Positions 1,027-1,839 of a stretch of DNA of 64,000 bases are shown here, in pieces. Within the stretch, counting starts at the first letter, position 1, and each line of letters starts with the position of its first letter. This stretch comes from Escherichia phage vB_Eco_BCPEco_001. The stretch lies in sequence record PV295200.1, one strand, 5' to 3'. Both the position numbers and the translations under genes were made by a program. The notes beneath the pieces are model-generated. The model was given only the letters and a program-made list of their open reading frames with translations. It had not been told where the DNA came from and made no database searches.

Positions 1027-1839
1027 TTATTCGACCTTCTTAAATTTGCAATTGTCAAAATGGTATCTTTTAGCGTGAGACTTATCCATGATTTTAGAGC
1101 AGTGCGGGCATTTTAATTTTTCTCTGCTATGAGATACACCCGTGATAACTTTGCATTTATCGCCGTGGTATTTTCCATAATTTCCTACATCACATATAAT
1201 TCCGCAATGCGGGCAATTTCTCTTTTCGACTTTTGCAAGACCCTTAGATAGTTTATTTAAATACTTTTCGTATTTTTGGGGGTCACTTTTAAGCTCAGAC
1301 CAAAAATCTTTCATCTGTTTAGAACATCTTTCTTTATATTCTAACATTTCGTTTTCTGATAACGATTCCAAATATTTCACTGAAGCTTTTCGAATATTTG
1401 CATTAACTTCTTTTCTCTTTTCATCTGTCCATAAAGATTTAGTTTTTTTAATGCCTTTTCCGGCTTTTTTAATTCGTTCCTGTTTTAAATTTGGTGATAG
1501 ATTCGCCCAAAACTTTTTAATGGTTTCTGATCTAATTTTAGATGTTTCCTCTTTAATCCATCCGTAATCTTTACTTACAATTCTCTGCTCTTTTGTACCC
1601 TTGGAGAATTTTATTAAGGCATAAGCCATTTCAGAATTTCGGTGTATTTTAAAAAGAAGCTCATGTGCAAAATAGTGTTCTCTTGCTGTCAGTAAAACCT
1701 TGTTTTCTCTAGAATCATCTCCTCCCATGGATTTTGGGACAATATGGTGTGATTCTGTATAATAATCTAATTTTTTCTTATTAAGACCTCTTTTAAGAGA
1801 TCTTTCTATAAGAGAGTCGTAAATTTTAGTATAATTCAT
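1027..1839 (-). CDS. HNH homing endonuclease with C-terminal zinc-finger-like repeats
   Basis: 270 aa; N-terminal HNH motif ([29 protein letters not shown]); two CPHC...KC repeats near the C-terminus; sits between neck genes 13 and 14. Confidence 0.7.

Follow-up and report, generated by a model that had tools for sequence, protein, structure and literature searches.

In the 64,000-nucleotide stretch of Escherichia phage vB_Eco_BCPEco_001 that we analysed (sequence record PV295200.1, hereafter the window), an open reading frame of 270 codons separates the neck genes 13 and 14, which raises the question of what this gene encodes, whether it is an insertion relative to the arrangement in other T4-like phages and whether it has the properties expected of a mobile gene. 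The reading that we favour, to which we assign a probability of roughly three in four, is that a free-standing homing endonuclease gene (HEG), a member of the T-even Mob class, has inserted exactly between genes 13 and 14 of a T6-like Tequatrovirus.

Gene order and expression signals at the 13/14 junction

On the minus strand of the window, gene 12 is followed by wac, gene 13, the 270-codon open reading frame and gene 14. The features of the locus, in window coordinates, are as follows.

4264..5814, minus strand: gene 12
2797..4254, minus strand: wac
1836..2765, minus strand: gene 13, neck / head-tail adaptor, 309 aa, upstream flank (PHROG head-tail adaptor Ad2)
1837..1856, minus strand: recoded 3' end of gene 13, completely linked to the insert, candidate altered target (14 carriers against 12 non-carriers)
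1850..1854, minus strand: GGGAG, SD-like motif 10 nt 5' of the HEG ATG (from the sequence; putative function)
1836..1839, minus strand: ATGA overlap of the gene 13 stop and the HEG ATG, within GGATGA (read from the sequence)
1027..1839, minus strand: free-standing HNH homing endonuclease gene, 270 codons plus TAA (open reading frame list, Pfam, PHROG)
1035..1041, minus strand: AAGAAGG, SD-like motif for gene 14 in the last HEG codons (from the sequence)
1023..1029, minus strand: native TAA-T-ATG junction, kept (from the sequence)
255..1025, minus strand: gene 14, neck / head closure, 256 aa, downstream flank (Pfam T4_neck-protein, E = 8.5e-138)

The initial annotation had placed a 270-aa reading frame between genes 13 and 14, abutting the gp14 start with one nucleotide to spare, and both statements were borne out: the gene starts with ATG and ends with TAA at 1029..1027, the gene 14 ATG occupies 1025..1023 and the spacer is nucleotide 1026 only. 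Its statement that the two neck genes are adjacent in T4 also proved correct, since in that phage gene 13 runs to 94553 and gene 14 begins at 94555, one nucleotide apart and with no HEG between them. The reading frame is not a chance one because hundreds of homologues exist, and in base composition the insert is not distinct from its flanks.

The ATG of the HEG overlaps the gene 13 stop codon in ATGA, an arrangement that makes translational coupling from gene 13 to the HEG possible and that is also present in the metagenomic homologue L035. The GGGAG motif arises with the recoding of the gene 13 end, and T4 reads TTGGA at that place. The coding strand carries no exact match to the late promoter TATAAATA between window positions 1 and 9165, a span that includes 7 kb upstream, and the only one-mismatch matches to TATAAATA within the HEG, at 1338 and 1261, are uninformative. 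Scans for sigma-70 promoters and terminators stayed at chance level, with no terminator-like site nearby on the coding strand, and the predicted RNA fold over the start (1790..1900, minus strand) was no better than that of shuffled sequences (z = 0.63). Because there is no TATAAATA, no nearby terminator and no structure at the start, the HEG looks like a promoterless cassette that would be read from late promoters upstream; MobE and other T4 HEGs are likewise promoterless and read through (PMC2790892, PMC2988022).

At the downstream boundary, AAGAAGG is likely to be the ribosome-binding site for gene 14, and the tails of homologues carry GGGG, AGAGG or AAGGAG at the equivalent place. The initial annotation had regarded the insertion as relevant to expression of the flanking neck proteins. 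With the native junction kept and an SD-like motif provided for gene 14, this concern looks small; of the flanking proteins only gp13 is altered, by F304V/I306V.

Further upstream (window ~2779..2794, minus strand), GGGGCC-GCAA-GGCCCC makes up a perfect tetraloop hairpin that directly follows the wac stop codon and precedes the ribosome-binding site of gene 13. The hairpin may serve to stabilise or process the mRNA, and no late promoter was found in the gap between wac and gene 13.

Domain architecture of the encoded protein

The protein divides into the following parts.

1501..1839, minus strand: Mob-type N-terminal nuclease domain, residues 1-113 (identity to RB3 MobE and RB7 MobD)
1660..1767, minus strand: HNH beta-beta-alpha-metal core, residues 25-60, with HH31/32, N46, H55 and H59 (Pfam, alignment, model)
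1231..1563, minus strand: helical lysine-rich linker or DNA-binding region, residues 93-203 (AF2 model)
1153..1215, minus strand: zinc finger 1, C209-x2-C212-x12-H225-x3-C229 (alignments)
1048..1110, minus strand: zinc finger 2, C244-x2-C247-x12-H260-x3-C264 (alignments, PHROG 27406)

The HNH label given by the initial annotation is upheld by the Pfam HNH_4 model (25.6 bits against a cutoff of 22, residues 25-52) and by PHROG 655 'homing endonuclease' (E = 1.8e-52), a family in which RB3 MobE is found at 1.2e-57; the classic Pfam model PF01844 stays under its cutoff (17.9 against 21.4). In an alignment of 65 sequences, residues H31, H32, N46, H55 and H59 are invariant, and the protein contains the N-terminal Mob motif MNYxKIY...HHIxPK..GG...N.V.LT..EH..AH. 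With RB3 MobE, residues 1-113 share 44% identity across 114 aa (E = 5e-24), and similarity ends at about residue 113; the N-terminus is 46% identical to RB7 MobD (tblastn) and 37% identical to a MobD-like paralogue in the same window. The AlphaFold model (mean pLDDT 92.3) consists of a beta-beta-alpha core, five long helices (residues 93-203) and two hairpin-plus-helix units. Within the core, strands 29-32 and 47-50 are followed by helix 52-66, and pLDDT exceeds 93 there.

The two zinc-finger-like repeats noticed initially are present as two CX2CX12HX3C motifs, each modelled as a hairpin plus helix. The ligands of zinc finger 1 are invariant among four 13/14-junction homologues, and C244, C247, H260 and C264 of zinc finger 2 are invariant across the 65 sequences. 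The module that contains both (residues 192-267) aligns with 78 aa of I-TevIII at 33% identity (E = 2e-7), both fingers being in register, and PHROG 27406, the family of an I-TevIII C-terminal fragment, matches residues 238-266. The linker (93-203) is the least conserved part of the protein and is poorly kept among the junction homologues. NUMOD3 (PF07460) was absent from the HEG protein even at E up to 10, though many homologues carry it. A fold search of the PDB with the whole model returned weak local HNH and zinc-finger matches (best E = 0.18, probability 0.97), the elongated multi-domain model does not superpose globally on PDB folds, and a sequence search of the PDB gave nothing better than E = 0.08.

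The I-TevIII nuclease domain (PHROG 12324) gives no BLASTP alignment with that of the HEG (PHROG 655), and PHROG 12324 is not among the HEG hits. Since the N-terminus matches Mob proteins, the zinc fingers match I-TevIII and the nuclease domains of the HEG and I-TevIII do not align, the protein is, as far as sequence comparison goes, modular, with a Mob-type HNH head on a zinc-finger body of the I-TevIII type.

Distribution, junction anatomy and signs of mobility

The 813-nt HEG is present in 46 phage records at 96-100% identity and always between genes 13 and 14, in phages that include T6, YUEEL01, CrRp10, fPS-2 and SHFML-26. About 519 Tequatrovirus records hold the 13-14 region, so that the carriers make up ~9% and in some 470 the junction is uninterrupted; T4 and T2 are without the HEG, and all 11 of the more distant T4-like loci from IMG/VR are uninterrupted at 13/14. 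Because T4, the ~470 records and the 11 distant loci are without it, the HEG is an insertion relative to the common arrangement, as the initial annotation had proposed. That annotation had also named what would count against it, a homologous gene at the same site in T4 and its close relatives: T4 has none, and T6 and 45 other records do have one, a presence/absence polymorphism that is expected of a mobile endonuclease gene and does not refute insertion. Across these otherwise collinear phages, the HEG occupies one fixed site in a minority. Since T6 and 45 other records carry it, and most carrier records already label it 'homing endonuclease', the element is part of public annotation and is not new; our literature search found no paper naming or testing this gene.

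One copy lies in LR597660.1 (Escherichia phage T4_ev151) at 91341..92153 and is 99.8% identical; by its name this phage is a T4 derivative, though T4 is without the gene. This could be a recorded acquisition event if the phage came from a laboratory evolution or cocktail experiment, and no paper describing T4_ev151 was found.

The nearest outgroup homologues (P0002-P0004) were detected on three metagenomic contigs at 50-57% amino acid identity. Their genes lie directly upstream of gp14 in all three, gp13 is visible directly upstream in two of the three, and the gp14 proteins beside them are 69-79% identical to that of T4. One of the three, L036, has a gp14 that is 99.5% identical to that of the insert-free L008, which appears to be Moonvirus-like. 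Because homologues diverged to 50-57% identity occupy the same site in other T4-like phages, the endonuclease lineage has kept to the 13/14 junction in several groups of T4-like phages. In one metagenomic T4-like contig (L034, from Logan SRR33991139), which also has the 13/14 HEG, a second Mob-like HNH gene was observed between gp14 and gp15 (1621..2217); its product has 198 aa and one C-terminal zinc finger. The neck and tail-completion genes appear to be colonised repeatedly by endonuclease genes.

The HEG lies three genes upstream of the terminase genes, and HNH proteins beside terminase genes are known packaging accessories (PMC3592412), which lends some support to an alternative in which the gene is a domesticated nuclease, either an accessory of terminase 16/17 or a weapon against co-infecting phages or parasites; defence nucleases derived from HEGs are known in ICP1 (as cited in PMC10448857). 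However, the protein is of the Mob family and is not one of the terminase-associated HNH proteins, the gene keeps to the 13/14 junction and not to the terminase genes, and DNA is packaged without it in ~90% of very close relatives, including T4 and T2, so that we regard domestication as highly improbable. T4-type phages use headful packaging. The narrower candidate of a terminase-associated HNH packaging factor was rejected: genes 14 and 15 separate the HEG from gene 16, and ~90% of near-identical phages are without it.

Carriers and non-carriers also differ beside the insert. Comparison of 14 carriers with 12 non-carriers identified eight fixed differences, at window positions 1837, 1839, 1842, 1845, 1848, 1850, 1854 and 1856, which are confined to the final 21 nt of gene 13; genes 13 and 14 have 261 further polymorphic sites, not one of which is fixed between the two groups. 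This amounts to 38% of the 21 nt, against a local divergence of ~5%. In all 12 insert-free Tequatrovirus genomes, which comprise T4, T2 and 10 other non-carriers, the junction is near-invariant and reads CCTCCATTTGGAATTTT(G/T)GT(A/G)GGTTAA-T-ATGGCT, whereas 11 carriers read CCTCC(A/G)GTGGGAGTG(T/C)TAGTTGGATGA... at the 5' junction and ...GAATAA-T-ATGGCT at the 3' junction. The HEG is always accompanied by this 21-nt recoded gene 13 end. A similar cluster is present in a second lineage: L008 is the HEG-less member of the panel most closely related to the Moonvirus-like carrier L036, and between the two the final 13 nt of gene 13 contain 5 differences, all synonymous, compared with ~6% elsewhere in the gene 13/14 fragments and 0 in the first 50 nt of gene 14. 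An insert-free genome with the recoded gene 13 end was found neither in the phage collection (searched for exact 28-mers only) nor in IMG/VR, and the 64-kb window contains no other copy of the T4-type junction, as self-target or operator, at up to 3 mismatches.

The recoding beside the insert parallels the polymorphic nick-site region by which mobE+ and mobE- phages differ (PMC2790892), and the target of the HEG probably lies at the 3' end of gene 13. Part of the recoded stretch could be donor sequence remaining from the original insertion, or the stretch could be there only to supply a ribosome-binding site and start codon; two of the eight fixed changes create the HEG ATG and the gene 13 TGA, and one contributes to the GGGAG motif. 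At the protein level the recoding turns PPFGILVG of gp13 into PPVGVLVG (F304V, I306V). These two substitutions (gp13 codons 304-306; window 1848..1856, minus strand) are located in residues 301-308, the C-terminal arm that gp13 inserts into the portal clip by hydrophobic docking (PMC12929587).

Pairwise comparison of carriers shows that the HEG is decoupled from its flanks. The copies in the window and in Pu-Krd-SF5 have 0/813 differences, with 76 differences in 1680 nt of flank (~4.5%), and CrRp10 and sutha differ at 30 positions in the HEG and 23 in the flanks. In pairs with 0-3 HEG differences, flank divergence sets in 8-30 nt before the ATG and 13-73 nt after the stop codon, and since the differences start so close to the HEG ends, the travelling unit appears to be the gene together with the recoded block. 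At synonymous sites the HEG is about a third as diverse as its flanks, with a mean of 0.069 against 0.213 for gene 13 and 0.160 for gene 14. Each of the 11 full-length copies examined, the window's included, is intact, and with pN/pS = 0.10 the gene encodes an intact HNH protein under purifying selection. Repeated homing, in which co-conversion tracts are very short and the cut lies near the insertion point, would account for the population data.

Low insert diversity and flank incongruence are also expected of a passive minority insertion in a freely recombining population. According to this alternative the gene is ancestral or was acquired once, has no drive and has been shuffled by general T-even recombination, the recoded gene 13 end being hitch-hiking donor sequence. 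It agrees with the flank polymorphisms, which are fully common to carriers and non-carriers right up to the insert, as general recombination gives, and reduced diversity is expected of a minority allele. On the other side, MobE and I-TevIII of the same family have been shown to home (PMC2790892, PMC1865063), diverged homologues hold the same junction in other lineages, the recoded cluster far exceeds local divergence and a comparable one recurs independently in L036 relative to L008, and the recoded allele was found in no insert-free genome, either in the phage collection, at the level of exact 28-mers, or in IMG/VR. Passive insertion without drive is in our judgement quite unlikely.

Somewhat greater weight, still on the side of the unlikely, is given to a defunct or decaying HEG that once homed and is now kept by linkage to the two essential neck genes or mobilised in trans by another nuclease, in the way that T4's own I-TevIII is a relic mobilised by MobE (PMC2790892). 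The HEG frequency of only ~9% of records is compatible with this, as are single-base frameshifts in A-runs, which were found in 3 of the 46 records: SHFML-26 (L037) and vB_EcoM_F1 (L038) change A7 to A6 at gene nucleotide 391, and CJY920 (L039) changes A5 to A6 at nucleotide 562. These copies may reflect decay of the gene or sequencing errors; since homopolymer runs are affected and the CJY920 record carries an UNVERIFIED flag, some may be errors. The intactness and low pN/pS of the full-length copies speak against decay, as does the invariance of catalytic and zinc-binding residues even in the 50-57% identical homologues, and the annotated T6-type loci are free of other nuclease genes for ~3 kb to both sides of the HEG.

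Under the reading that we prefer, a Mob-class HEG inserted precisely at the 13/14 junction, the gene would be transcribed with the late 13-14 message, without a late promoter of its own, and translated from GGGAG and/or through ATGA coupling. In a mixed infection its zinc fingers would bind the uninterrupted 13/14 junction of a HEG-less phage, and the HNH domain would nick (like MobE) or, as a dimer, cut (like I-TevIII) within ~25 bp of the insertion point. When the break is repaired by recombination with the carrier genome, the cassette would be copied together with the recoded gene 13 end, hence V304/V306 in gp13. The carrier itself would be spared, because the insert splits the target and the eight substitutions change it. 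The initial annotation had linked the insertion to marker exclusion and, given the Mob-type HNH family, the patchy distribution and the decoupling from the flanks, marker exclusion around 13/14 is a reasonable expectation.

A more specific version, which we put forward tentatively and hold to be rather doubtful, is that the Mob HNH head on an I-TevIII zinc-finger body cuts as a dimer, unlike the nicking MobE, and that each homing event also changes the portal-docking part of the neck, through F304V and I306V. If true, a selfish element would directly drive variation at a virion assembly interface. None of the HEG findings is surprising to the field. Their interest is that the HEG is found in the standard laboratory phage T6 and is absent from T4 and T2, so that homing and marker exclusion are directly testable in crosses, that the candidate target has been narrowed to ~21 bp, and that the linked recoding, which changes two gp13 arm residues entering the portal clip (PMC12929587), is a concrete example in which a selfish gene alters a structural protein that is essential.

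Relation to known endonucleases

The window contains further genes of the Mob type, in the following positions.

50576..52393, plus strand: nrdD, with the nrdG start near 53027
52406..53038, plus strand: second Mob-type HNH gene, 210 aa, PHROG 655 E = 2e-42, between nrdD and nrdG
60385..61239, plus strand: third Mob-type HNH gene, 284 aa, GTG start, PHROG 655 E = 7.8e-45

The second gene occupies the T4 mobD position. Its first 21 nt, which encode MNYDRIY, are identical at 18 of 21 positions to the first 21 nt of nrdG downstream, a likeness that looks like a scar left by a short duplication or by recombination where the insertion begins. The third lies between gene 47 (58922..59941) and gene 46 (61255..62937), and related phages have endonuclease genes beside their gp46 homologues.

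Amongst characterised enzymes, the HNH nickase I-HmuI of the SPO1-group intron is the paradigm of nick-initiated homing (as described in PMC2790892) and resembles the HEG product in its extended form, in which an HNH domain is joined to a separate DNA-binding domain. It differs in being intron-encoded and in having no zinc-finger module, and it is absent from the sequence and fold hits of the HEG. SegF and SegG, the T4 endonucleases behind localized marker exclusion or 'intronless homing', have the behaviour predicted for the HEG, in that the product of a free-standing gene between conserved genes cleaves the allele of a related phage and flanking markers are co-inherited (as cited in PMC2988022). 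They are, however, GIY-YIG enzymes and not HNH enzymes, and they cut up to hundreds of base pairs away, whereas the HEG-linked polymorphisms lie within 21 nt of the insert.

MobE, with MobA-D of T4/RB3, shares with the HEG a homologous N-terminal HNH domain, membership of PHROG 655 and a free-standing position between conserved genes. MobE is also without its own promoter (PMC2790892) and patchy in T-even relatives, and a polymorphic block in its neighbour gene separates carriers from non-carriers (PMC2790892, Fig. 8). In contrast to the HEG, which is located in the late structural operon at 13/14 and has two zinc fingers, MobE is found amongst nucleotide-metabolism genes and has another C-terminal domain, and it nicks inside nrdB at nt 122-126, whereas the candidate HEG target abuts the insertion point.

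I-TevIII of RB3, the HNH endonuclease of the nrdB group I intron, has 269 aa to the 270 of the HEG product and the same overall plan of an N-terminal HNH domain and two C-terminal CX2CX12-13HX3C fingers, with C211/C214 and C242/C245 corresponding to C209/C212 and C244/C247 (PMC1865063). It is intron-encoded, unlike the HEG: a search for a group I intron gave no Rfam match anywhere in the 64-kb window, in which the only Rfam matches are eight tRNAs. These tRNA genes lie at 24070..25425 on the plus strand. That the HEG is an I-TevIII orthologue was ruled out, as there is no intron, the nuclease domain is unrelated and only residues 192-267 align. The zinc-finger motifs of I-TevIII bind zinc and are needed for DNA binding, and its dimer interface comprises residues 194-241 (PMC1865063). 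I-TevIII cuts as a dimer to leave 2-nt 3' overhangs, and the link between Mob and I-TevIII architecture in one protein bears on the question of nick versus cut. The HEG is a well-defined but uncharacterised addition to the set of T-even free-standing homing endonucleases, and the element itself is one that public records already annotate.
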